A stretch of 64,000 nt of DNA from Candidatus Fervidifonticultor secundus (GCA_031459385.1 JAVKIP010000013.1:1-64000); one strand, 5' to 3'; positions 1 through 19,913 are shown, counted from the first letter of the stretch. Notes: generated from the letters alone by a model not told the origin. Numbers and translations are program-made.

Positions 1-156
1 TTCGGCACCGACTCCACCTGGTGGTCGGGCTACCGGGGGCAGATCGTCGCCGAACAGGTCGAGGTGCTCCGCCGGCTGGACCTGAGCGACGCCGACCGGG
101 ACGCGATCCTGGCCGGGAACGCCCGGCGGATCTTCGGCATCCCGGCGCCGGCCTAG
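1..156 (+). CDS. Amidohydrolase-family protein, C-terminal fragment (truncated by window edge)
   Basis: Frame 1 reads FGTDSTWWSGYRGQ...LDLSDADRDAILAGNARRIFGIPAPA*; FGTD...I.G.NA..F is the typical amidohydrolase_2 C-terminus. Confidence 0.75.
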   Translation, partial: FGTDSTWWSGYRGQIVAEQVEVLRRLDLSDADRDAILAGNARRIFGIPAPA

Positions 157-355
157 CCTGCCCGCCGCCCAGCAGGCGCGCAGCGCGCCGGCGTGCAGGG
201 CGCGCGCGCCTGCCGGTGATTTGGCCGGTGCATCAGGCGCGAATCCCGCCTGATTTTTGCCCGGTTCGGGCACTATCCTCTCCGGAAGCCGTGGGCGCGT
301 CAGGCGCCGGACCGACGTGCGCGGCCCGACACCCTTCAACCGGAGCGTGCTGCTC

Positions 356-1507
356 ATGGCGCAGACTCCCCACCCCGTGTCCGGCGCGCCCGGGCCGCGC
401 CGGGGGCCGGTCCTCTACCACCTGGCCGACGTTCGATTGGGCGGGACGTTTCCGTTCCTCGGCGAGGCCGGCGCCGCGCACCGGCGGCAGATCCGCGAGA
501 CGTTCGTCAGAGCCGTGGACGCGGGCGTGGACCTGCGCCCGACCGTCGTCCTCATCACCGGCAACCTGTTCGGCACGCCCGTGCCCTCGCGCGAGCTCAT
601 CGAGTTCGCCCGCGCGCAGGTCGGACGCTTCACGAGCCAGGGGATCCCGGTCCTGATCGCGGCGGGCCCCTTCGATCCCCTCCATGAGCGCAGCTACGCG
701 CTGGGCGCGTTCACGGGTCTCGAGCACGTGACGGTCTTCCCCGCCGCGCCCAGGGCTGTCGACGTTGCCGACGGCGCCGTGCGCGTCGTGGGAATCTCGT
801 GGAGCGGCGCCCCGGTCTCGGTCGACTTCCTCACCGCGCTGGCGCGCCACCCGCGGCGGCCCTACCTGGTAGGCGCGGGATGCCTGGCGCTGCCCGACGG
901 CGAGGAGGGGCTGGCGGCGCTGCGCCGGCTCGTAGATGGCTCCGGCGCGCACTACCTGGCACTGGGCCACTCCCCCGTGCGCCGCGACGTCGGTTCAGAG
1001 CGCGTCACCGCCCTCTTCCCCGGGGCCCCGGAGCTCGTCGCGCCTGTCGAGGGCGAGGGGTCGCCGGTGCTGGTGGAGTTCCAGGGCGACCGCGCACGAC
1101 CCACATTCGTACCCGTGGGACGCCGCCGCTTCCAGCGCCTGGACGTGAACGCGGCCGCGTGCGCCGGCACCGACGACCTCGCCGCTGCCATCCGGGCGCT
1201 GGGGAGCCCGGACCTGGCAGCCGTCGTGCGCCTGACCGGCACGCTGCGCCTGGATCAACACTTCGATCTCGACCACGTCCTGGCGCGCGCCCGCGACGCG
1301 TTCCTGGCGCTGGAGCTGGAGGACGAAACGGTCATGGCCGCTGCGGAACTGGCCGCAGCCCGGTTTCCGGACCTGTCGGCTGCGGGCGCCTTCGTAACCG
1401 TGGCGCGGCAGGAGCTGGACCGCGCCCAGAGCCCCGACGCGCGCCGGATCGCTGGTGCCGCGCTGCGGCTCGGGCTGGCACTGCTGGAAGGACGGCGGGT
1501 CCCGTGA
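356..1507 (+). CDS. Mre11/SbcD/YhaO-like metallophosphoesterase-fold protein with degenerate metal-binding motifs
   Basis: HLADVRLG, ITGNLFG, AAGPFD, LALGHSP, FPGAPE and RLTG follow the SbcD motif order; stop overlaps the next start (GTGA); ATG 356 chosen over TTG 257. Confidence 0.85.
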   Translation: MAQTPHPVSGAPGPRRGPVLYHLADVRLGGTFPFLGEAGAAHRRQIRETFVRAVDAGVDLRPTVVLITGNLFGTPVPSRELIEFARAQVGRFTSQGIPVLIAAGPFDPLHERSYALGAFTGLEHVTVFPAAPRAVDVADGAVRVVGISWSGAPVSVDFLTALARHPRRPYLVGAGCLALPDGEEGLAALRRLVDGSGAHYLALGHSPVRRDVGSERVTALFPGAPELVAPVEGEGSPVLVEFQGDRARPTFVPVGRRRFQRLDVNAAACAGTDDLAAAIRALGSPDLAAVVRLTGTLRLDQHFDLDHVLARARDAFLALELEDETVMAAAELAAARFPDLSAAGAFVTVARQELDRAQSPDARRIAGAALRLGLALLEGRRVP

Positions 1508-3642
1508 AGATCACCCAGCTGCGCCTGAGGCGGTTCAAGCGGTTCGCGGACTACAACGCGGCCTTCGCGCCCGGGCTCACGGTCGTGCGCGGGCCCAACG
1601 GCGCGGGCAAGACCACGCTGCTGGAGGCGGTCTTCGAAGGGCTGTTCGGCGGCCCGGCCCGGCCGGAGGACGCCGCGCGGCTGCGACCGTGGGGCGAGGA
1701 CCGGCTCGGCGAGGTCACTATGGATCTGGACGTCGACGGCGGGCGGTGGCTGCTGCGTCGCGACCTGGAGGCCGGCACGATCCTGCTCCAGCGCGCCGAT
1801 GGGGGAGAGCGCGTCGAGGCCCCGCGCGACGTGCACCGGCGGCTGCTGGACTGGCTGGGGCTCGCCTCCGAGGGCGCGTATCGCACAGCGGCGTTCGTGG
1901 GCCATGCCGACCTGGCGCGCATCACCGACGACCGCCGGCTGCTGGCCACCCACCTCTCCCGGGTCCTGAGCGGCGCGGGCATCGAGCGCTTGCAGGAGGC
2001 CCTGCAGGTGCTGGGGGAGCGGCGGACCCATCTGACCGCCGCGCTGCAGGGGCCGCGCAGCGCTCCCCACCGGATCGCGGACCTGCGCGCGCAACAGGCC
2101 GCCCTGCGCCAGCGGGACGAGCGCCTCCAGCGTCACCACCTCGAGCTCGACGAGCTGGTGCAGCGGGCCGCGGCCGTCGAGCGCGAGCTGGAGGCCCGGG
2201 CCGCGCTGCTGCGCGAGATCCGCCGCGCCGCGGACCTGCGGGAGCGCCAGGAGGCGCTGGCCAGCGAGGAAGCCGGGCTGCGCGAGCAACTGACACGCGT
2301 GGAGGAGCAGCTCCGGCGCCTGGCCGAGCTCGATGAAGCCCTGGCCGCGTTCTCGTCGCACCAGGAAGCCCTGGTCGCCGGCCTGTTCCAGGCGCGCCGG
2401 CAGTACCTCCAGGTGCAGCAGCAGCTGGCGGCCGCCCGGGACCAGGCGGCCCGCGAGGAACGGGCGCTCGAGCGGCTGGCCACCGCACACCACGCGGTCC
2501 GGCAGCTGGGACCCAAGGGGTGGACGCTGGCGACGGCGGGGGCGATCGGCGTCGCCGCCGGCGCTGGCATCGTCACCATACTGCAGCACTGGCTGGGATG
2601 GATCGTGCTGGCGGCCGGTGGCGGCGTCACGGTGGTGGGGATGCGCTACCGCGGCCGCATCATCGAGGCCAGCGCCGACTACCGGCAGCAGGAGCAGCGG
2701 GTCCTCGAGCTCCGGCGCCGCGTGGGCGAACTGCAAGAGCAGCTCGCCCATGCCGAGGCGGCGGTGACGACGCGGCTGCAGGCCATGGGGAGCGCCAGCC
2801 TGGAGGATGTCGAACGCCGCTTCTCCAGCTACATGGACCAACTGCGCGAGCGCGAGGAGCTGCGGGCAGCCCTGCGCACGGTCTGGGGCCCGGACCCCAG
2901 GACCGTGCTGGAGCACCGGCTGCAGGCGCTGGCCGATGAGCTGGCGAGCCTGCGCGCGGCACTGGAGGAGATCCCGCGCACCGCGCGCGGGCCGGCTGCG
3001 GATCAGGACGAGATCGAGCAGCAGGTGCGGCAGCTCACAGCCGAACTCCACGAGCTGCGCGAGCGGCGGGCGCGGCTGGAAGCCGCCGCCGAAGAGCTGC
3101 GCGACCGCGGCGACGAGGTCGCACACCTGGAGGAAGAGATTGCTACCCTGGAGGCACGCGCGGCGCGCGACCGGCAGGCCCTGCAGGTCACGGACCTGGC
3201 GCTCCGCATGCTGGACGCTGCCCGCTCGCTCTCGGTCTACCCCGCACGCCGGCTGCTGGAACGCCGCGCGTCAGAGTACCTGGCCACGGCCACCGGCGGC
3301 GTCCACACGAGGATCACGCTGGACGAGCGGACCCTCCGCCCCCTCGTGGGCTCCTCCGCGGGCGGCTGGCGGGAGGCTGCAGACCTTGGCCAGGGCACGG
3401 CTGACCAGCTCTACTTCTGCCTGCGACTGGCGCTGCTGGACGTGATGGCGGGTGACCGGCGGCCGCCGCTGTTCCTCGACGAGCCGTTCGCGCACCTGGA
3501 CGAGACGCGCCGGGCGGCCATGCTACCGCTGCTGGTGGCCGCCGCCAGGGAGCGGCAGGTGGTCCTGAGCACGGCCTGGCCGCACTTCGACGCCGTGGCG
3601 GATCGCATCATCCTGCTCGAGCACGCCCCGGCGCCCGCTTAG
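1504..3642 (+). CDS. Rad50/SbcC/YhaN-like SMC-family ATPase with coiled coil and central transmembrane hairpin
   Basis: MKITQLRLRRFKRF start, Walker A GPNGAGKTT, long heptad coiled coils, two hydrophobic segments (WTLATAGAIGVAAGAGIVTIL, WLGWIVLAAGGGVTVVGM), LGQGTADQLYFCLRLAL, Walker B LFLDEPFAHLD. Confidence 0.9.
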   Translation: MKITQLRLRRFKRFADYNAAFAPGLTVVRGPNGAGKTTLLEAVFEGLFGGPARPEDAARLRPWGEDRLGEVTMDLDVDGGRWLLRRDLEAGTILLQRADGGERVEAPRDVHRRLLDWLGLASEGAYRTAAFVGHADLARITDDRRLLATHLSRVLSGAGIERLQEALQVLGERRTHLTAALQGPRSAPHRIADLRAQQAALRQRDERLQRHHLELDELVQRAAAVERELEARAALLREIRRAADLRERQEALASEEAGLREQLTRVEEQLRRLAELDEALAAFSSHQEALVAGLFQARRQYLQVQQQLAAARDQAAREERALERLATAHHAVRQLGPKGWTLATAGAIGVAAGAGIVTILQHWLGWIVLAAGGGVTVVGMRYRGRIIEASADYRQQEQRVLELRRRVGELQEQLAHAEAAVTTRLQAMGSASLEDVERRFSSYMDQLREREELRAALRTVWGPDPRTVLEHRLQALADELASLRAALEEIPRTARGPAADQDEIEQQVRQLTAELHELRERRARLEAAAEELRDRGDEVAHLEEEIATLEARAARDRQALQVTDLALRMLDAARSLSVYPARRLLERRASEYLATATGGVHTRITLDERTLRPLVGSSAGGWREAADLGQGTADQLYFCLRLALLDVMAGDRRPPLFLDEPFAHLDETRRAAMLPLLVAAARERQVVLSTAWPHFDAVADRIILLEHAPAPA

Positions 3643-4599
3643 ACGGGTAGCGTGATGGTGAACCGGCTGCCTTCGCCGGGAGTGCTGGCGGCGCTGACGG
3701 TGCCGCCGTGCGCTTCGGCCAGGGCTCTGACGATCGCCAGCCCCAGGCCGCTGCCTCCCGTCGCCCTGGCACGAGAGGCGTCCAGCCGGTAGAAGCGGTC
3801 AAAGATGCGCTCGAGCTCATCGGGCGGGATGCCGGGGCCGGTATCCTGCACCCAGAGACGGACGACGCCCGGTCCGGTCTCCACGCCCACCGTGACGCGC
3901 CCGCCGCGCGGCGTGTGGCGGATGGCGTTGTCCAGCAGGTTGTGGACCATCTGGAGCACGCGCTCGCGGTCGACCCGCACCCGCGGCGGGGAGTCGGCCG
4001 CCCGGTACTCCACCTGTACCTGCTTCTCATCGGCCGCGGCGGCCACCGCGGCCACTGCTTCCGTCACCAGCGCGGCCAGATCCATCGGCCGCCGGTCCAG
4101 CGGCAGCCGGCCGGCCTGCGCCAGCGACAGGTCGCGCAGGTCGTCCACGAGCCGCGAGAGCAGGCGGACCTGCCCGTGCAGGGCCGCCAGCCGCTCGGGC
4201 TATGCCGCGACGACGCCGTCGAGCATGCCTTCCAGGTTCGCCTGCAGCACCGACAGCGGCGTGCGGAGTTCGTGGGCGATGTCGGCCCCGAGCTGCCGCC
4301 GGGCGTCTTCCAGGCGCTGGAGGTCCGCCGCCATGGTGTTGAAAGCGCGCGCCAGCGCACCGAGTTCATCGTCGGAGGGCACGGCCACCTGCTGCGCCAG
4401 ATCCCCGCGGCCGATCCGGCTGGCGGCCTCGGCCATCTGGCGCAGCGGCGCGGTCAGGTAGCGCGTCACGGCGATGCCCACCAGCACCGCAGCCAGCACG
4501 CCGGCCAGCGCTGCCAGCCACGTGGCCCGCCGCAGCGCCCCCAGGAACCGCAGCTCGGGCGCCCCCATCATGCGCCGCATCATGGCCGACATGCCGGCG

Positions 4600-5454
<855 letters not shown>

Positions 5455-5456
5455 GG

Positions 5457-5840
5457 TCAGGGCGACGTCACTTCCCTCTTGAGGGTCTCGTACTCCTCAC
5501 GAGTGATCTCGCCGCTGGCCAGCCGGCGCTTGAGGATCTCGAGCGGCGTCTCCCGGCCGCCCGGCCCAGCGCCCGCCGCGGTCCCCGCCGGCTCCGCGCC
5601 GGCACCCGCCGCCGGCCGCCGCACCAGCGCGGCCACCGCCAGGGCGATGCCGACTACGATCAGCCCCCAGAAGACCAGCCCTACGGCCGGGATCCCCCAT
5701 CCGCCTCCCCAGCGGCCATCCCAGCCCATCATGCCATGGCCCATCCAGCCGCCCATCACACCAACCATTCCCAGCGCGGGCAGCAGGACGAGGACACCAA
5801 GCACCACGAGCACCACGATCGCCACGTCTCGACCCGTCAT
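5457..5840 (-). CDS. SHOCT-domain small membrane protein, Met/Gly/Trp-rich
   Basis: GMVGVMGGWMGHGMMGW, two hydrophobic helices, C-terminal PLEILKRRLASGEITREEYE; AGGAGG RBS. Confidence 0.85.
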   Translation of the reverse strand: MTGRDVAIVVLVVLGVLVLLPALGMVGVMGGWMGHGMMGWDGRWGGGWGIPAVGLVFWGLIVVGIALAVAALVRRPAAGAGAEPAGTAAGAGPGGRETPLEILKRRLASGEITREEYETLKREVTSP

Positions 5841-9386: not shown

Positions 9387-9980
9387 CTATCCCAGGATCA
9401 GTTCCTCGTCGACGCGGCGATAGTCGTGCAGTTCCGTCGGGGTGAACCACAGCCCGACCTCGAATGCCGCCTCCTCCAGCGATCCCGAGGCATGGATGAG
9501 GTTGCGCACCGGGCGCTTCTGGAGGTTGGCGACTGTCGGGGAGTCCGCCGAGTAGTCCCCGCGGATCGTTCCCGGCGCGGCCCGGTAGGGCAGCGTGTCG
9601 CCGACGATCTTGCGAACCACGGACACCGCGTGCGTACCCTCGAGCACCATGGCCACCACGGGGCCGGATCCCACGAAGTCGACCAGCCACTGACGCACAC
9701 GGCGGCCGATCTCGAGCGGGTCGTCGGTGCCTGCCTCGCGGCGCACGTCGAGGCCCGCCGCCTCGAACGCCTCGCGGGTCTTGCCCCCGATGGTGAGCAG
9801 GAAGCCTTCGTCGGCGGGATAGTGCCGCTCGAGGAGCTCGCGCGACGCGCGCAGCATCTTGAGCCCGACGATCCGTAGCCCGACCCGCTCGAACCGCCGC
9901 AGCACCTCGCCCACCAGCCCGCGGCACACGCCATCCGGCTTGAGGAAGACGAGGGTGCGCTCCGTGCGTGCCGTGGTCAT
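9387..9980 (-). CDS. ndk: Nucleoside-diphosphate kinase (long form with internal insertion)
   Basis: ERTLVFLKPDGV, SGPVVAMVLEG, PGTIRGDY, NLIHAS; GGAGG RBS. Confidence 0.95.
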   Translation of the reverse strand: MTTARTERTLVFLKPDGVCRGLVGEVLRRFERVGLRIVGLKMLRASRELLERHYPADEGFLLTIGGKTREAFEAAGLDVRREAGTDDPLEIGRRVRQWLVDFVGSGPVVAMVLEGTHAVSVVRKIVGDTLPYRAAPGTIRGDYSADSPTVANLQKRPVRNLIHASGSLEEAAFEVGLWFTPTELHDYRRVDEELILG

Positions 9981-10021
9981 GCTCCACCTCCTGGATCGTG
10001 CCGCTATAATGGTACTCACCG

Positions 10022-11047
10022 ATGCGCGCGAGACAACGCTGGATCGCCGTCAGCGCGGTCGTGGCTGCCCTGGCGGCTGCGGCCATCGCAGTCGTCGCCG
10101 TCGCGATCTGGCTCACCGCGCCACGATGGGACATCCGTGTGGAGCTGCGCGAGCCGTCGCTGCCCGTGCCCAGGGCACGTGAGACGTTCTGGCCGGGCGA
10201 AGACGGCCAGGCCCCGCTGCTGGTCGTCATCGACAACGCGCCGCAGGCCAGGCCCCAGGCGGGCCTGGCCGAGGCGTGCCTCGTTTATGCCATGCCCACC
10301 GAAGCGCTCATCACGCGCTTCCTGGCCGCGTTCTGCGACGCGTCGCCGGCGGCGGTCGGGCCGGTCCGCAGCGTACGGGCCTACATGCTGGACCTGGCTG
10401 CCGACATCGGCGCGGTCACGGTGCACGCCGGCTACAGCGCCGAGGCACGCGCGCGCATCCTGCGCGAACGCCTCCCGGTCATCAACGAGTTCTGGACGAG
10501 CAGCCCGTTTTGGCGAGACCCCGGCCGCCAGGCCCCACACAACCTTTACGCCAGTCTCGATCCCCTGCACAAGGTCGCGCGGCAGCGCCGCCCGGACGTG
10601 CGGCCCCGCGGCGTGCCCTACCGGTTCGGTGACGTGCCGCCGGAGGCTGGCCTTGACGCGGCGGTCGTCACGCTCGACTACGCCCCGCACTACGCTGTCA
10701 CCTACCGGTACGACCGGGCCCGTGGGGTCTACTTCCGCGAGCAGGACGGGCAGCCCCACGTGGACGCCGACGGCCAGCCCGTGGCGCCGGTGTCGGTCAT
10801 CGTCGCGTTCGTCCGCTGGTGGCAGGTGGAGGAAAACGGCGGTCCCAGCGGCCGCCTCGACCTGACCGGCGGCGGCCGCTTGACGGTGATCACCCGGGGC
10901 CGCCTCCAGGAGGGCGCCTGGAGCCGGACCGCGGCAGGCCCCCTGAGCTTCTCGCTGGCCGGCGGCGCGCCAGTGGTCGTACCCCGGGGACCGGTCTGGA
11001 TGGAGTTCCTGCCCGTCGGGAGGCCGTTCGAGGTCCGGCGCCTATAG
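10022..11047 (+). CDS. DUF3048 (YerB-like) membrane-anchored protein
   Basis: N-terminal TM, VVIDNAPQARPQAGL, ITRFLA, GPVRSVR, APHNLY. Confidence 0.85.
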   Translation: MRARQRWIAVSAVVAALAAAAIAVVAVAIWLTAPRWDIRVELREPSLPVPRARETFWPGEDGQAPLLVVIDNAPQARPQAGLAEACLVYAMPTEALITRFLAAFCDASPAAVGPVRSVRAYMLDLAADIGAVTVHAGYSAEARARILRERLPVINEFWTSSPFWRDPGRQAPHNLYASLDPLHKVARQRRPDVRPRGVPYRFGDVPPEAGLDAAVVTLDYAPHYAVTYRYDRARGVYFREQDGQPHVDADGQPVAPVSVIVAFVRWWQVEENGGPSGRLDLTGGGRLTVITRGRLQEGAWSRTAAGPLSFSLAGGAPVVVPRGPVWMEFLPVGRPFEVRRL

Positions 11048-12658
11048 CCCGATGGCGCACCCGTCCACGCGAGGGTCGGAGGCGCCCGTGTAGATGCCGC
11101 GCGCACGGTCGGCGATGATGGCCTGCGCGCCCCCGCCGCCTTCCATCTCGCCCATGGGCTTGAGCCGGTGGCCCCGGCGCGTCAGTTCGGCCAACGTTTC
11201 GGCCGGGTAGCCCTCTTCGATGCGCAGCTCGAACGCCTGGTCGACCGTGGCCGGGTCTGTGCCGGGGAAGCTGTGCCAGCGCGGCGCCTCGATCGCCGCC
11301 TGGAGATCCATGCCCGCGTCCACCAGATTCTGGAAGATCTGGAGGTTCCACTGCGGCTGCGCATCGCCGCCGGGCGTACCCCAGGCCAGCCACGGCAGGC
11401 CGTCGCGGGTCGCCAGGTACGGGCTCAGCGTGTGCATCGTCCGCTTGCCGGGCGCGATGCAGTTGGGGTGACCCGCCTCGAGCGAGAAGCCCCGGCCGGC
11501 CCGGTTGTTGAGCATGATGCCCGTGCCCTCGACGATCTCACCGCACCCGAACGACGCCGACAGGCTCGTGATGTACGCCACCATGTTGCCCTCGACATCG
11601 GCGGTGCAGAAGAACGTCGTGTCGCCGGTCACCTCGGTCAGGCCACCCGCAGGCATCTCGGCAGCCTTGCCCATGTCCAGGGCGCGGCGTCGCCGCGCGG
11701 CGTAGGTCTTGTCGAGAAGCGTGCCGAGGGGGTTGCGGACGAAGCGCGGATCCCCGACGTACGCCAGGCGGTCGGCGAAAGCGAGCTTCTTGGCTTCCAC
11801 GCCGCGATGGACCCAGTCGGCCGATCCCCACGGCGCGGGCGGCATCTCCTCCAGGACGTTGAGCATCTCCAGCAGCAGGAAGCCCTGCGAGGGCGGCGGC
11901 GTGGTGTGCACCGTGATCCCGCGGTAGGTCGTCGAGACTGGCTCGGCCACCTCGACGTCGTAGCCTGCCAGGTCATCCGCCGAGAGCAGGCCGCCGTGCT
12001 CCTGGCTGTAGGCACCGATCGCCCGGGCGATGGACCCCCTGTAGAACGCCTCGGCGCCGCCGTCGGCGATCTGGCGCAGGGTGGCCGCCAGGTCGCGCTG
12101 CACCAGGACGTCGCCCTCCACCGGCGGTCGGCCGCCCGGGAGGAAGATCCTTGCGGAGGAGGGGTACTGCGTCAGCACCGGCTCGGCCTCGCGGATCCAG
12201 TGGGCGACCTTGCGCGCCACCGGCACGCCCTCCTCGGCGTACCGGATCGCTGGCTCCAGGAGTTTACCAAGAGTGAATCTTCCGCTTCCCCACCGCTGCA
12301 GGGACACCTGCATCGCCTTGACTGCGCCAGGCACCGAAGGCGACAGCATGCCGCGCAGCGGCATCTTCGTGTAACCGCGCGCGGTGAAGAAGTCGCGCGT
12401 AGCCCCGGCGGGCGCCGGCCCGCTGCCGTTCACCGCCCACACCCTGCCCTCCCGCCTGCTGAAGACGACCATGAACGTGTCGCCGCCGAGGCCGCTCATC
12501 ATGGGCTGGGCCACGCCCAGTACGCCGGCGACCGCGATGGCGGCGTCAACGGCGTTACCGCCGCCTACAAGCACCTCCAGGCCTGCGGCCGTGGCCAGCG
12601 GATGACCCGAGGCCACCATCGCCCGGCGTGCGATGACCATCGAACGGCTGTACGGCAT
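11042..12658 (-). CDS. ggt: Gamma-glutamyltransferase family (cytoplasmic, no signal peptide)
   Basis: GGNAVDAAIA, GLGGD, PPSQG, catalytic DTT, TPGGDAQPQ, GASDPRVDG. Confidence 0.93.
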   Translation of the reverse strand: MPYSRSMVIARRAMVASGHPLATAAGLEVLVGGGNAVDAAIAVAGVLGVAQPMMSGLGGDTFMVVFSRREGRVWAVNGSGPAPAGATRDFFTARGYTKMPLRGMLSPSVPGAVKAMQVSLQRWGSGRFTLGKLLEPAIRYAEEGVPVARKVAHWIREAEPVLTQYPSSARIFLPGGRPPVEGDVLVQRDLAATLRQIADGGAEAFYRGSIARAIGAYSQEHGGLLSADDLAGYDVEVAEPVSTTYRGITVHTTPPPSQGFLLLEMLNVLEEMPPAPWGSADWVHRGVEAKKLAFADRLAYVGDPRFVRNPLGTLLDKTYAARRRRALDMGKAAEMPAGGLTEVTGDTTFFCTADVEGNMVAYITSLSASFGCGEIVEGTGIMLNNRAGRGFSLEAGHPNCIAPGKRTMHTLSPYLATRDGLPWLAWGTPGGDAQPQWNLQIFQNLVDAGMDLQAAIEAPRWHSFPGTDPATVDQAFELRIEEGYPAETLAELTRRGHRLKPMGEMEGGGGAQAIIADRARGIYTGASDPRVDGCAIGL

Positions 12659-15958: not shown

Positions 15959-17044
15959 ATGAAACACGCTGACCGGGTCGCGCGTGTACGCGCGCAGATG
16001 AAGCAGACGGGGGTGGACCTGCTGGCCCTGCCGCCGTCCGACGACCTGTTCTACCTCCTGGGCTACTCGCCGCACGCTGACGAGCGTCCCTGCTACCTGT
16101 TCCTCACGCAGGGGGAGGTACTCTTCGTCGTCCCCGAACTGAACGCCGGGCAGGCGCGCGCTCACGTCGATCTGCCCCTGCTGGTCTACGGGGACGCGGA
16201 AGGACCCGGCGACGCGCTCCGCCGCGCGGCCGACCTGCTGGGGCCCGTGGAGCGGTTGTGCGTGAGCGACACGATGCGCGCCGACTTCCTGCTGCTGCTC
16301 CAGGCGCGCTGGCCCCGGGCCACGGTCGTGCCCGGTGCCGACGTGATGGCTCCGGTGCGGATCATCAAGAGCCCCGAGGAGATCGAGGCGATGCGGCGCT
16401 CGGCGGCCACGGCGGACGTCGCCACCGACGCCGCATTCGCCGCGTGCCGGCCCGGCGTGACCGAGATCGCCGTGGCGGCTGCGATCAGAGAGGCATTCGG
16501 CGCGCAGAACGTGCCGGAGGTGCTGTTTGCCACGGTGGGCGGCGGGCCGCACTCGGCCTTCCCCCACCATGCGGTGACCGATCGGCCGCTGCGTGCCGGG
16601 GAGCCCGTGCTCGTCGACCTCGGCGGCCGGCTGGGTGGGTACGCCTCCGACATCACGCGCATGGCCTTCCTGGGCGAGCCGTCTCCACGCTACCGCCAGA
16701 TCCACGACACGGTGGAGCACGCGGTGCGGGCCGCGCTCGACGCCATTCGCCCCGGCGTGCCCCTGGCGGCCGTGGACCGGGCCGCCCGCGGCGTGATCGA
16801 GGCTGCGGGCTACGGCGGGTACTTCACGCACCGCACCGGCCACGGCATCGGCATCGCCGGCCACGAGCCGCCGTCGGTGACGCACACGAACCAGATGCCG
16901 ATCCAGGCAGGCATGGTCTTCAGCGTCGAGCCGGGGATCTACCTGGAGGGCGAGTTCGGGGTGCGGCTCGAGGAGGTCGTGGTCGTGACCGCGTCGGGGC
17001 CCGAGCGCTTCAGCCGCCTGCCGCGGGAGGTGCGGGTGCTGTAG
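15959..17044 (+). CDS. Xaa-Pro peptidase family (M24B)
   Basis: KSPEEI, YASDITR, HRTGHGIG, HEPP, SVEPGIY, GVRLEE; AGGAGG RBS. Confidence 0.93.
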   Translation: MKHADRVARVRAQMKQTGVDLLALPPSDDLFYLLGYSPHADERPCYLFLTQGEVLFVVPELNAGQARAHVDLPLLVYGDAEGPGDALRRAADLLGPVERLCVSDTMRADFLLLLQARWPRATVVPGADVMAPVRIIKSPEEIEAMRRSAATADVATDAAFAACRPGVTEIAVAAAIREAFGAQNVPEVLFATVGGGPHSAFPHHAVTDRPLRAGEPVLVDLGGRLGGYASDITRMAFLGEPSPRYRQIHDTVEHAVRAALDAIRPGVPLAAVDRAARGVIEAAGYGGYFTHRTGHGIGIAGHEPPSVTHTNQMPIQAGMVFSVEPGIYLEGEFGVRLEEVVVVTASGPERFSRLPREVRVL

Positions 17045-17148
17045 ACCCGGCGCGGCGGGCACGGCCGCCCGGGGCGGGCGGACCGCGCGGGGCGGGCGCG
17101 GAGCGCGTGGGGCGGGCGCGGACCGCGCCCGGTGGGGTGGAGGCCGCG

Positions 17149-17589
17149 ATGCCTGCAGACCCGTTGGTGACCCGGCGCTGGCTGGTTGCCCTGGGGCTGG
17201 GCGCGTGCGTTTCGCTCGCGGTCCTGGCCGTCCAGGCAGGCATCGCCTGCTGGCGCCCCTCGTCCCGCGAGGTCGAGCGGGCGGTGATGGCCTACGTGGC
17301 ACAGCTGACTGCCAGCTGGGAGTGGCGGTCCGGGCGGGAGTTCGCACGCGTCGCCACCCAGGCGCACACGCGCATGCTGGAGCACCCTGGGATGCCCGCG
17401 CGGGCCATCTTCTCGCCCTACCTGCAACAGGCACGCTTCGAGCGGATCGAGCCGCGGTGCCGCGGCGCGGCGGTGGAGATGACGGTCTGGACAGGGTACA
17501 AACCCACGTTCATCGTACCGCAGCGCGTCACGCTGCACCTGGTACACGAGGGCGGGCGCCTGAAGGTGGCCGCGGTGATGGGCCACTGA
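17149..17589 (+). CDS. Hypothetical membrane-anchored protein, possibly NTF2-like
   Basis: GGAGG RBS, N-terminal TM, C-terminal LHLVHEGGRLKV strand pattern. Confidence 0.6.
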   Translation: MPADPLVTRRWLVALGLGACVSLAVLAVQAGIACWRPSSREVERAVMAYVAQLTASWEWRSGREFARVATQAHTRMLEHPGMPARAIFSPYLQQARFERIEPRCRGAAVEMTVWTGYKPTFIVPQRVTLHLVHEGGRLKVAAVMGH

Positions 17590-17595
17590 CCCCCG

Positions 17596-18375
17596 TCAGG
17601 GCTTCGTCGCCATGTGCAGCACCGCGATACCGCGGGTCAGCCGACGGTAGCGCACGTCCGCAAAACCTACCTCGCGGATCAGGTCGCTCAGCCGTTCCGG
17701 ATCCGGCCACTGGCGGATGGAATCGTGCAGGTAGCGGTACGCGTCCGGTCGTCCGGAGAGCCAGCCGCCGAGGCGGGGAATGACCGCGCGCGAGAAGAGG
17801 TCGTAGAGCGCACGGAACCAGGCCGGGTGGGGCTGCCCGAACTCCAGCACGACCAGGCGGCCGCCCGGGCGCAAGACCCGGTGCATCTCGCGCAACGCCT
17901 GCGCGGGGTGCGGCACGTTGCGCAGGCCAAAGGCGATCGTGGCGGCGTCCAGGGTGCGGTCGCGCAGCGGCAGGGTCTCGGCGTCGCCCAGCAGCACCGC
18001 AGCGCCGGCCAGCCGCTCGCGCGCCAGACGCCGGTGCGCGGCAGCCGCCATGCCCCAGGCAAAGTCGACGCCCACGACCCGACCGTCCTTCCCGCCGGCC
18101 CGCGCGAGCCCCGCCAGCAGATCTCCGGTGCCACAGCACACATCCACCGCACGGCCACCGGGCCCAAGGCCCGCGGCGCGCACCGCCGCCCGCTTCCACA
18201 GGAGATGCAGGCCGCCGCTCAACAGGTGGTTGAGGAGGTCGTAGCGTCCAGCGATGGCGTGGAAGGCATCCCGGACCCAGGTGCGGCGCACGAGGGGCGG
18301 CGCCCCCAGGTCGGGCACGCTGGCATCGCCCTGCGGGCCCCCGCCAGGACGTGTGGCGCCCTGCTCCGATCTCAT
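17596..18375 (-). CDS. menG: Demethylmenaquinone methyltransferase (UbiE/MenG)
   Basis: IAGRYDLLNHLLS, VDVCCGTGD, FGLRNV, YLHDSI; ATGA overlap with menE. Confidence 0.93.
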   Translation of the reverse strand: MRSEQGATRPGGGPQGDASVPDLGAPPLVRRTWVRDAFHAIAGRYDLLNHLLSGGLHLLWKRAAVRAAGLGPGGRAVDVCCGTGDLLAGLARAGGKDGRVVGVDFAWGMAAAAHRRLARERLAGAAVLLGDAETLPLRDRTLDAATIAFGLRNVPHPAQALREMHRVLRPGGRLVVLEFGQPHPAWFRALYDLFSRAVIPRLGGWLSGRPDAYRYLHDSIRQWPDPERLSDLIREVGFADVRYRRLTRGIAVLHMATKP

Positions 18376-19913
18376 GGCGAGGGACCCTCCCCGGCGCCTC
18401 CTGTCCGGTCTCCTGCCGCGTTCGCGGCGTCGGTCCGGTGGAGGCCCACAGCATCGGCCGGGCACCCGCCAGGGAATCGCGCCTGCAGTGCCCAGCGCAG
18501 CAGCTTGCCTCCGGTCGAGCGCGGAAGGTCGGCCACGAACCAGATGCACCGCGGCACCTTGTAGCGGGCGAGCCGCGCCGCGCAGAACGCCGCCAGCGCC
18601 GCGCGGTCGACCCGGGCTCCCGGCCGCGCCACGACCGCTGCCCCGACGGTCTGGCCCCAGACGGGATCGGGCAGCCCGAAGACACCGGCATCGGCCACCG
18701 CGGGGTGCGCGCGCAGAACCGCCTCGACCTCGGAGGGGTAGATGTTCTCGCCGCCGCTGATGATCAGGTCGTCGCGCCGGTCCACGACGAACAGGTCCCC
18801 CGCCGCGTCGAGGTAGCCGAGGTCGCCGGTGTGCAGCCAGCCGTCGCGAAGGGCGCGAGCCGTCTCGTCAGGCCGGTTCCAGTACCCGGCCATCACGGTC
18901 GGACCGCGCACCAGGATCTCGCCGACGTCGCCGGGCGCCGCGTCGATGCGCAGTTCCACTGGGAAGAGCGGCCGGCCGGCTGCCCCGATCTTCCGGGGAA
19001 ACTCCTCGGGCGGCAGCGTGGCGACCTGCGAGGCCGCCTCCGTGAGGCCGTACGTCGGCGCCACCGGCACGCCCAGGGCCGCGCAGTGGTCGAGCAAGTC
19101 GCGATCGGCCGGGCCGCCGCCGAGCAGCACGCAGCGCAGCGTGGGCGGGAACGGCCGATAGCCGCGGGCATCGAGCATGCGCTGGAGCATGGTGGCCACC
19201 ACCGAGACCGTCGTCACCTCGCCGGCGTCGATGGCCCGGTTGGCGGCGTCCGGGTCGAATGTCTCGTGCACGACCACGGGAATGCCGTACAGCACGCCGC
19301 GCCAGAATAGGGCCAGGCCGCCAATATGGAAGAAAGGCAGTACCGCCAGCCAGGCATCGTCGCGGCGCACGCCCAGGTGCAGCGCCGAGGCCGCGGCATT
19401 CCACCAGTGGTTCCCGAACGTGAGCTGCGCGCCCTTGGGCCGGCCGGATGTAGCCGAGGTGTAGACGATGCCCTGCACCTGCGACAGGTCGAAGCGGTCG
19501 GCGAGAGGCGCCTGGCCCTCCGGGTGTCGGGCGAGTTCCTCGATGACGACCACCCGCGGGCCTGGCGTCGCCCCTCGCGCCTGCTCCGCCGTGCGCTCCT
19601 CGCAGATCAGCCACCGTGCGCCGCTGTCTGCCAGTTGCCAGGCGAGCTCGGGTGCGGCCAGGCGCGTGTTGAGGGGCACCAGCACCGCGCGCAGGCGCGC
19701 CAGGCCGAACACGACCGCCGCGTAGGCCGACCCGTTGCGCAGCAGGACCGCTACGTGGTCGCCCGCCGCCACGCCCAGACGCCGCAGCCGCAGCGCCAGG
19801 CCTGAGGCGCGGCGGTCGAGGTCCGCGAACGTGAGCCGCTCGGCGCCGGCGGCCACGGCCAGGCGCCCCCCAAAGACTGCGGCGCGGTGGGCCAGCCAGT
19901 CAGGCGTCAGCAT
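18372..19913 (-). CDS. menE: o-succinylbenzoate-CoA ligase
   Basis: YTSATSGRPKG, YGLTEAASQ, GWLHTGDLG, SGGENIYP; men-cluster context. Confidence 0.92.
   Translation of the reverse strand: MLTPDWLAHRAAVFGGRLAVAAGAERLTFADLDRRASGLALRLRRLGVAAGDHVAVLLRNGSAYAAVVFGLARLRAVLVPLNTRLAAPELAWQLADSGARWLICEERTAEQARGATPGPRVVVIEELARHPEGQAPLADRFDLSQVQGIVYTSATSGRPKGAQLTFGNHWWNAAASALHLGVRRDDAWLAVLPFFHIGGLALFWRGVLYGIPVVVHETFDPDAANRAIDAGEVTTVSVVATMLQRMLDARGYRPFPPTLRCVLLGGGPADRDLLDHCAALGVPVAPTYGLTEAASQVATLPPEEFPRKIGAAGRPLFPVELRIDAAPGDVGEILVRGPTVMAGYWNRPDETARALRDGWLHTGDLGYLDAAGDLFVVDRRDDLIISGGENIYPSEVEAVLRAHPAVADAGVFGLPDPVWGQTVGAAVVARPGARVDRAALAAFCAARLARYKVPRCIWFVADLPRSTGGKLLRWALQARFPGGCPADAVGLHRTDAANAAGDRTGGAGEGPSP

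Follow-up and report, generated by a model that had tools for sequence, protein, structure and literature searches.

A conserved, apparently nuclease-dead Mre11 homologue and its SbcE-type ATPase partner in Candidatus Fervidifonticultor secundus

What would keep an Mre11-Rad50-like pair under selection once its nuclease can apparently no longer cut? The question is raised by two overlapping genes in a 64,000-nucleotide stretch of DNA from the hot-spring bacterium Candidatus Fervidifonticultor secundus (GCA_031459385.1, JAVKIP010000013.1:1-64000; hereafter the window), which opens contig C5 of a 3.3 Mb genome, 97.6% complete, and has a G+C content of 74%. Coordinates count from the window's first letter and lie on the + strand unless marked otherwise. 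Gene A (356..1507) encodes a 383-residue Mre11/SbcD protein of the YhaO/SbcF type (P0001), identified by profile, AlphaFold2 (AF2) and Foldseek matches and predicted to be nuclease-dead. Gene B (1504..3642) has a GTG start and encodes a 712-residue SMC-like ATPase of the SbcE(YhaN)/Rad50 type (P0002), identified by Pfam, NCBIfam and PDB matches and an AF2 model. The start of B overlaps the stop of A in the tetranucleotide GTGA (1504..1507). As two-metal catalysis appears to have been lost and yet the coupled pair is under purifying selection, a repurposed, non-nucleolytic scaffold is in our view the best reading. On balance we favor the interpretation that the locus encodes a two-subunit SbcF/SbcE (YhaO/YhaN)-type Mre11-Rad50-like complex with a conserved pseudo-nuclease, which would serve as a membrane-anchored, ATP-gated scaffold.

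The two subunits and their motifs

An AF2 model of A built on the family alignment (predicted local distance difference test, pLDDT, 87.1) retains both the phosphoesterase core and the capping domain, along with the C-terminal helix-loop-helix with which Mre11 grips the Rad50 coiled coil at its base. Its top Foldseek matches are Mre11/SbcD chains (E 6.8e-13 to 1e-8), led by 3av0_A (6.8e-13) and including 3qg5_C, 3tho_B and 7yzo_A; the alignment spans about 400 columns, capping domain and C-terminal helices included, and full-length Rad50-bound chains are among the matches. Against PDB, the family profile of A finds M. jannaschii Mre11 (3auz, E 4.9e-12), and the landmarks LALGH, FPGAPE and RLTG are present. 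Pfam gives no match at E ≤ 1, Metallophos included, and NCBIfam only matches of E around 1e-3 to Mre11/SbcD equivalogs, the best at 17.5 bits against a cut-off of 600; by comparison, an active-type relative matches PF00149 at 6.2e-11 and TIGR00619 at 3.4e-15. The nearest protein-atlas clusters are Bacillota metallophosphoesterase families. Because no family model recognizes A-type proteins, some sources leave them hypothetical; others label them 'DNA repair exonuclease SbcCD nuclease subunit', an easy mistake.

The motifs of A were placed by the family alignment, a 63-row motif table and the profile alignment to 3auz. The stretches in question align to HIADNHLG, SGDLFN, AGNHE and LGHIHKR of M. 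jannaschii Mre11, and to HTADVHLG, GDLFD, GNHD, the motif IV His and GDWHS of 35 fully liganded relatives from the same phylum. Former motif I (419..442) reads HLADVRLG: Asp25 of D-x-H is kept and the His is now Arg27. In former motif II (557..574), TGNLFG, G-D has become G-N, with Asn70 in the place of the bridging Asp. Former motif III (659..676) reads AAGPFD, G-N-H-D having become G-P-F-D; Asp107 is kept, Asn-His is replaced by Pro105-Phe106, and with it the catalytic His is absent. The motif IV position holds no His. In former motif V (962..979), LGHSPV, G-H-x-H has become G-H-S-P, where the second His is replaced by Pro207 and the first, His205, is kept in the window's genome only. Two of seven metal ligands (Asp25 and His205) are therefore kept and five lost, and the clade consensus keeps Asp25 only. 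A is best read as a pseudo-nuclease of the Mre11 fold in which two-metal catalysis would have been lost. The C-terminal helix-loop-helix (residues 340-383, 1373..1504; helices 342-356 and 360-377 in the AF2 model) ends in LRLGLALLEGR, one of the most highly conserved blocks of A, which active relatives have too. Conservation, the AF2 model and a model of the complex point to a Rad50-binding domain.

B passes the Pfam cut-offs for AAA_23 and AAA_27 (YhaN domain), the YhaN-type AAA domain (PF13514) reaching 39.3 bits (cut-off 22; E 6.9e-10) over residues 2-204, and falls just under those for SMC_N (38.2 against 40 bits) and SbcC_Walker_B (21.8 against 27 bits). It matches NCBIfam Rad50 at E 2.6e-22 with 78.7 bits, far below the cut-off of 700, and M. 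jannaschii Rad50 (3aux) at E 1.7e-32. The AF2 model (pLDDT 83.1) has two head lobes, long helices and a tight helix-turn-helix. Alignment to Rad50 places Walker A, GPNGAGKTT, at 1591..1617 and an intact Walker B and D-loop, LFLDEPFAHLD, at 3469..3501. At the Q-loop Gln position stands His134 (FVGH, 1903..1905), the signature motif (3385..3396) reads LGQG where Rad50 has LSGG and the rest of the clade LSQG or LSQA, and at the H-loop position STAW (3568..3579) aligns T-A to Rad50 T-H and has no His. Kyte-Doolittle analysis and the AF2 model locate a hydrophobic helical hairpin at the coiled-coil apex (residues 336-385, 2509..2658; helices 336-360 and 364 onward, joined by a three-residue turn). 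It is the most hydrophobic stretch of B, is followed by RYRGR, and is a predicted membrane anchor. A CxxC zinc hook is found at the apex of none of 60 B proteins examined; the single CxxC encountered sits in a head domain.

These motifs had been noticed in a first-pass annotation made from the sequence alone. The SbcD-like landmarks and degraded motifs I-V that it read in A (DVR, GNLFG, GPFD, no motif IV His, GHSP) are all at the places it gave and are borne out by the alignments to 3auz and to relatives, and GPNGAGKTT, FVGH, LGQG, DEPFAHLD and STAW in B are all there, placed by the alignment to 3aux. The two transmembrane helices that it proposed in the place of the zinc hook correspond to the apical hairpin. 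It had gone on to propose a coordinated loss of catalysis in both subunits, and here the comparison with relatives speaks against it. Of 56 complete B proteins from the phylum, partners of active, half-eroded and dead A alike, 55 have the hairpin, as do all 19 sampled Chloroflexota relatives, and the H-loop His is missing in every family member examined in the phylum and in Chloroflexota. The Q-loop His, within the phylum, is confined to the window's genus; since it is usual in Chloroflexota B proteins with a fully liganded nuclease partner (8/10 sampled), it is a family variant rather than a lesion. In dead-clade B proteins outside the window's genus the Q-loop Gln is kept in all that were readable by motif patterns, and the signature is LSQG or LSQA in all but the cluster representative P0128 (LGQA). 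The signature change of Ser to Gly is accordingly the single alteration of B that is nearly confined to the window's genus. Walker B is D-E, the canonical form, in all 22 dead and half-eroded rows, and D-D in all 34 active-type rows and throughout the sampled Chloroflexota relatives. Walker B of B has thus shifted in step with erosion of the nuclease, only toward the canonical form.

Erosion of the nuclease, selection and the loss of the active pair

Is the state of A peculiar to one genome, or shared? We searched 94 genomes of the window's phylum, all from one order, and found a relative in 83. Sixty loci were fetched, in 57 of which B follows A; A was not recovered at L078 (no tblastn match at E ≤ 1e-5), L098 (a contig of 1770 bases) and L107 (extraction failed), and these are missing from the motif table and the tree. 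Three grades can be told apart. Thirty-five rows are of the active type and have every ligand (DVHLG, GDLFD, GNHD, motif IV His, GDWHS). Seven are half-eroded: motif III reads G-E-A/S/N-D, the motif I His is kept in 6/7, the motif II Asp in 5/7 and the motif IV His in 2/7, and all seven have lost the first ligand of motif V and kept its last His. The remaining grade, dead, comprises 16 rows that read DVRLG, GNLFG, AG(P/A/H)(L/F/M)D and GGSP. Maximum-likelihood analysis of 61 A proteins unites the 16 dead rows in a single clade (support 100); adding the half-eroded rows gives a group of 23 that is likewise monophyletic (support 100), its stem measuring 0.86 changes per site. One family (f1) supplies all 23, and the active-type copies of that family form a separate clade among the active rows. 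The four-nucleotide overlap of A and B is found in 14/16 dead, 6/7 intermediate and 21/33 active-type loci.

The genomes that carry these copies differ in what else they encode. Most genomes with a half-eroded copy also have an active one (G009, G010, G014, G015 and G016); G012, 68% complete, yields just a weak and partial second match. Of the 20 genomes that carry a dead copy, G022 alone has a second full-length relative (L071); the second match in G023 is a weak fragment, and the two matches in G028 are pieces of one gene. L071 is a long-branch half-eroded copy (DIHLG, GDLFA, GESD, GGSHQ) on contig C128 of a genome that is 59% complete, a different contig from that of the dead copy. The dead-type A of G028 (L042; contig C144, 18519-19727) matches in two parts (residues 14-251 and 252-381) some 100 bases from each other, which may be due to an insertion or a frameshift.

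The original place of the active pair can still be recognized. In four of five active-type loci examined the gene order is recA, recX, a UvrD helicase/PD-(D/E)XK nuclease fusion (~1010-1045 residues), A, B and RNase Y; at the fifth, the helicase-nuclease gene alone was seen upstream. The window's genome has the recA cluster intact on contig C12 (158414-165759), in the order recA, recX, helicase/PD-(D/E)XK nuclease, RNase Y and a TIGR00282-type metallophosphoesterase, with ~500 bp between the helicase-nuclease gene and rny; we presume the RNase Y and TIGR00282-type neighbors of recA to echo the recA-rny-ymdB neighborhood of Bacillus. The same gap measures 384 bp in G001, 1302 bp in G006, 1321 bp in G026 and 1271 bp in G030, as against 3.7 kb in G016 and 4.1 kb in G009, where it holds the active pair. 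Given a short slot in five of five dead-clade genomes and one of 3.7-4.1 kb in the sisters, the active pair was deleted from its ancestral slot. TIGR00619 finds nothing in the window's genome at E ≤ 0.1, and no other Mre11/SbcD is present: the genome's five Metallophos proteins comprise two YfcE-like ones, two plain ones and, beside rny, one of the TIGR00282 type, and the only paralogue-level relatives of B are SMC and RecF. The first-pass annotation had allowed that A and B might be the inactive half of a heteromeric complex, with an active pair elsewhere. For the window's genome this is refuted, as there is no active paralogue and the ancestral locus is cleanly deleted, unlike in the sister genera, where an active pair is found together with a half-eroded copy. 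The dead pair is a paralogue that was eroded stepwise within one family of a small phylum and is now the sole complex of its kind in these genomes. Two neighbors on the active side deserve a remark of their own: the active-type B of L120 (G009, 9463-11918) seems interrupted, with a 581-residue frame followed by the C-terminal third in another frame, possibly a frameshift or an assembly error, and the recA gene of L119 (G016, 16460-18613, − strand) encodes 717 residues with a LAGLIDADG_2 domain between the RecA halves and looks to contain an intein.

How strongly is the dead state held? A word-indexed search returned about 70 proteins 50-88% identical to A, none with a Pfam domain and the named ones all from 'Armatimonadota bacterium' metagenome-assembled genomes (MAGs); from this group identity drops straight to 26-31%, in relatives that have PF00149. 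About 55% identity is kept across eight genera, and the ligand substitutions are common to all 16 dead-clade loci. Among 65 database representatives of the dead clade, Asp107 is invariant, Arg27 and Asn70 are found in 64 each, Leu at position 106 in 62 (Phe in the window), Gly205 in 61, Pro105 in 57 and Pro207 in 52. The mean frequency of the top residue is 0.74, 61 positions are at least 97% conserved, and an FPFLG loop following motif I is new and almost invariant.

Such conservation could be taken to mean that A is still a hydrolase, with a rebuilt single-metal or metal-free site (Asp25, Asn70, Asp107, Arg27 and, here, His205) and perhaps a new substrate. Residues of the former active site are indeed conserved above the protein average, Asp25 and Asp107 persist, and the half-eroded sisters keep the last motif V His and, in 6/7, the motif I His. 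However, the catalytic His of motif III and four ligands have given way to Pro, Leu/Phe, Gly and Pro, which are incapable of metal binding or catalysis, and no phosphoesterase superfamily profile recognizes A. Moreover, a single Asp-to-Asn or His-to-Asn change in yeast Mre11 already abolishes endonuclease activity in vitro, as reported in PMC2625443. We consider a rebuilt hydrolase unlikely, and return to the pseudo-nuclease.

Between the window and the sister genome G001, the ratio of nonsynonymous to synonymous substitution rates (dN/dS) is 0.29 for A (confidence interval 0.22-0.37) and 0.28 for B (0.23-0.35), next to 0.255 and 0.286 for two neighboring genes and 0.7-1.6 for most wrong frames; other close dead-clade pairs give 0.24-0.33. 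Low dN/dS alone cannot pick the strand, since an antisense frame over the kinase gene downstream of B, the third positions of which coincide with those of the sense frame, also scores low; homology does pick it. The first-pass annotation had stressed that both frames are full length, unbroken and joined by GTGA. Both frames and the overlap at 1504-1507 are as described, but openness says little at 74% G+C, where even the strand opposite B has an open frame of 623 residues (1255-3126, − strand; G+C by codon position 0.87/0.53/0.84). This antisense frame was preferred by a crude caller based on G+C by codon position, which served solely to pick frames for Pfam scans and missed several amidohydrolase genes; we rejected it as a gene, regarding it as a high-G+C artefact, and homology places the gene on the + strand. 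The case against decay consequently rests on conservation and dN/dS, long open frames being expected by chance at this G+C. Could the pair nevertheless be a disappearing relic, its frames still open for no other reason than high G+C and a recent common ancestor? Chance frames of this length, the loss of the pair from some genomes, the apparently split dead copy of G028 and a constraint looser than in active-type pairs would all suit such a scenario. It is contradicted by dN/dS of 0.24-0.33, equal to that of neighboring enzymes and with 0.37 as the upper confidence bound, by ~55% identity over eight genera with 61 positions at least 97% conserved, by the conservation of the Rad50-binding helices and by the start/stop overlap in 14/16 loci. 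We regard it as largely refuted and extremely improbable: the dead pair is a conserved, selected state and not decay. The first-pass annotation's expectation of orthologues that share the substitutions at a dN/dS well below 1 is borne out, and so is its proposal of a protein that lost two-metal catalysis yet was kept, with a repurposed scaffold as the best reading, given clade-wide ligand loss and purifying selection.

Genomic context and possible function

If the pair is a non-nucleolytic scaffold, how might it work? We propose that A and B would assemble as A2B2, as in Mre11-Rad50, with the apical hairpin of B anchoring the complex in the cytoplasmic membrane and the heads lying in the cytoplasm. 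Such a complex would bind ATP and clamp DNA, probably its ends, without cutting it, and could act as an ATP-gated tether, scaffold or sensor; resection would be left to other enzymes, for example the recA-linked UvrD-helicase/PD-(D/E)XK nuclease. The conserved surface of the former active site might now bind the head of B or a phosphate group, with Arg27 standing in for the charge of the metal.

Complex modelling, which had been suggested along with the first description of the locus, gives results in keeping with the proposed assembly. For A together with the two head halves of B the score is 0.77 (0.77, 0.77 and 0.78 in three runs), as against 0.47 for the best control; the mark is one reached by 116/157 solved complexes and 2/215 mismatched pairs. 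Contact agreement between runs is at least 94%, and the partner pLDDT at least 84. The predicted interface brings A residues 340-382 to B residues 536-578 and 158-216, the contacts of lowest error being those of A 345-373 with B 562-573 at the base of the coiled coil.

Several points weigh against the scaffold that we favor. Because Mre11-Rad50 complexes have been solved, the high complex score may reflect likeness to them, or memory of solved structures, rather than binding by this particular copy. The motif IV position is free to vary in the dead clade (His in 21, Tyr in 21, Cys in 13 and Ala in 5 of the 65 representatives). The dN/dS of A in the closest active-type pairs is 0.085-0.17, below the 0.24-0.33 of dead A, so that constraint is real but somewhat relaxed. 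Five of 25 genomes of dead-clade genera, one of them 98% complete, have no copy, and the pair is therefore dispensable. A Ser-to-Gly change in the signature motif of Rad50 is expected to weaken ATP-driven engagement of the heads. As for expression, five sequencing runs contain the stretch or a part of it, of which three could be sources of this DNA and one is an RNA library; this library has one exact 204-nucleotide contig inside B and one inside the neighboring kinase gene, but such a library can contain DNA and contigs cannot show transcription, which makes the 204-nucleotide contig no more than a hint of expression. Finally, both dead and half-eroded pairs have left the DNA-repair neighborhood and sit behind an amino-acid ABC transporter.

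The last point invites a reading outside DNA metabolism, in which the pair would be a membrane-anchored mechanochemical device of the ABC/SMC type, working for instance with the transporter and an amidohydrolase or in membrane or envelope organization, with A as no more than a dimerizing lid on the ATPase heads. The first 156 nucleotides of the window (1..156) hold the 3' end of an Amidohydro_2-type gene, the last 51 codons and stop, truncated by the contig start and identified by its frame +1 translation to 153 and by tblastx; 200 nucleotides separate it from gene A. The region 5' of gene A matches this fragment by tblastx in five of five dead-clade loci, where the full copies match PF04909, making the Amidohydro_2-type gene a conserved upstream neighbor of the pair. 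In the dead lineage Amidohydro_2, A and B keep this order behind the transporter operon; the half-eroded lineage was examined at two loci, both with the transporter upstream and one with the amidohydrolase gene between it and A. This, the loss of the recA-recX-helicase/nuclease-rny context and the dispensability of the pair in some genomes all agree with a non-DNA device. On the other hand, a gene order seen in just one family could reflect descent and not function, A stands 200 nucleotides away from the upstream gene, and neither A nor B resembles a transporter part. In addition, the nearest tested relatives of the pair act on DNA, according to PMC2811018. We judge a role outside DNA metabolism to be rather improbable.

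The surroundings bear on one more proposal, an anti-phage or anti-plasmid SMC-like defense module that senses foreign DNA at the membrane and has its effector encoded elsewhere. B matches two SMC-like defense ATPases in PADLOC, mad3 of MADS (1.1e-21) and LmuB of Lamassu (4.1e-19), membrane anchoring would suit the sites of DNA entry, and the presence of the pair is patchy. However, these matches lie in the ABC/SMC head and coiled coil and are generic, PADLOC finds nothing for A, no other defense gene is nearby, and across genera the locus shows synteny and vertical inheritance instead of belonging to a variable island; a defense module is, in our estimation, very unlikely. The neighbors of the pair include galT/galK and a two-component system besides the transporter and the amidohydrolase. 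Convergent with B, at 3639-5840 (− strand), lie genes for a HAMP/HisKA/HATPase_c histidine kinase, an OmpR-type response regulator and a small Gly-rich membrane protein with a SHOCT-like tail, and in the loci of two relatives (L114 and L116) a cupredoxin gene stands between the response regulator and the SHOCT gene. A scan of positions 1-4200 for promoter and terminator consensus sequences gave nothing beyond the expectation from shuffled sequence.

Is the scaffold a peculiarity of one family? Among 1.84 billion cluster representatives a profile search found 12,524 matches, of which the best 150 were tabulated: 143 are full length and 120 keep all ligands scored. The degenerate A proteins from outside the window's clade among these 150 include P0342 (D-R-N-S-R-G-P), P0274 (D-R-N-D-R-H-T), P0298 (D-L-N-D-A-S-G) and P0242 (D-R-D-H-H-G-P); one member of the P0298 cluster is named as a Chloroflexota MAG protein. 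The outside degenerate forms are 23-30% identical to A, as compared with 31-52% to their fully liganded neighbors. The D-R-N state takes three changes on a tree of 41 rows, three being also the number that its well-supported branches impose. Joining the window's dead and half-eroded rows with four Chloroflexota-type degenerate rows costs 98 log-likelihood units (approximately unbiased test, p-AU 3.5e-6), a test weakened by the group having been chosen after a tree was seen. A scan of species genomes gave 80 loci, mostly from Chloroflexota, of which 73 were tabulated and seven with A outside 300-480 residues left out. A is degenerate in nine of the 73, each time with a B partner of 711-730 residues and in 6/9 with the four-nucleotide overlap; the genomes of these nine have no second full copy of the type at E ≤ 1e-10, only weaker partial metallophosphoesterase matches. 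A Chloroflexia MAG (G103; L222/L227, contig C9, 793206-794246) has a broken A-type copy in three pieces with two in-frame TGA codons, and an intact, fully liganded pair elsewhere. Judging from these trees and motif tables, ligand loss, including the changes of His to Arg and Asp to Asn, arose independently in Chloroflexota and in a third lineage. From here one may go further and suppose, as a possibility that we hold tentatively and with considerable doubt, that SbcEF-type machines have repeatedly (at least three times, in at least two phyla) become a non-nucleolytic class in which Arg and Asn replace the Mn2+ ligands of motifs I and II, leaving a metal-free pocket for phosphate or DNA ends in a membrane-hung, ATP-gated tether or DNA-end sensor. 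If this were true, the dead state would be able to take over fully from the nuclease-active complex, as in the window's clade, and the core job of the family would be structural.

Comparison with known systems

The best-characterized relatives are Mre11-Rad50 and SbcCD (3av0, 3qg5, 3tho, 6s6v, 7yzo), with which the pair shares both folds, the head and coiled-coil architecture, the C-terminal helix-loop-helix at the base of the coiled coil and the operon order. It differs from them in having no two-metal site, a hydrophobic hairpin for the zinc hook, no H-loop His, a His in the Q-loop and LGQG for LSGG. Family-model and atlas evidence liken it more specifically to SbcE-SbcF (YhaN-YhaO) of B. 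subtilis, although A here lacks five of seven metal ligands, the phylum is another one and the genomic context is not one of DNA repair; YhaN is 963 residues long, compared with 712 for B. Krishnamurthy et al. (PMC2811018) describe the sbcD-like gene as lying directly upstream of the SMC-like ATPase gene, and SbcE as having no CxxC hook and, set between two heptad-repeat arms, a unique central domain with a hydrophobic first half, already noted in 2009. The pair shares with that system, as portrayed there (PMC2811018), the gene order, a hookless B and a hydrophobic central segment (residues 336-385), and AAA_27 is over its cut-off in B.

Loss of the metal site with retention of the fold has precedents within the calcineurin-like phosphoesterase superfamily. 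In the literature searched we came across neither a natural Mre11/SbcD homologue that is nuclease-dead nor a Rad50-like protein anchored in the membrane. The B subunits of eukaryotic replicative polymerases, which are related to the Mre11-like DP1 of archaeal PolD, and Vps29 are inactivated scaffolds of this kind; they kept the same superfamily fold after loss of the metal ligands, and belong to eukaryotes, to a different branch and to different partners. To our knowledge, an Mre11 with a Rad50-like ATPase as its partner is not among them. A nearer parallel comes from yeast Mre11, where we take D56 to be the motif II Asp and H125 the motif III His; Asn70 of A is then the same kind of Asp-to-Asn change as in mre11-D56N. 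The mre11-D56N and mre11-H125N proteins lose endonuclease activity in vitro, yet the complex with Rad50 still forms and sustains repair provided that another helicase/nuclease, Dna2, is there to compensate (PMC2625443). In the mammalian complex, activation of ATM depends on the binding of ATP to Rad50, not on the Mre11 nuclease, as stated in PMC3642328.

The yeast alleles are engineered point mutants, as are most of the cases from which nuclease-independent roles of Mre11-Rad50 are known. Here a natural lineage has fixed at least five changes over eight genera and discarded the active copy, and the clade amounts to a natural experiment: the nuclease site has been dismantled and the complex kept, graded intermediates survive in the sister genera, and Chloroflexota independently went the same way. 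A comparison of dead, half-eroded and active pairs should show the non-cutting role of the complex, whether it truly sits in the membrane and whether Arg and Asn form a metal-free pocket. A hookless SbcE-type ATPase with a hydrophobic center was already known; what is new beside it is a natural, clade-wide and selected putative pseudo-nuclease of the Mre11 fold.

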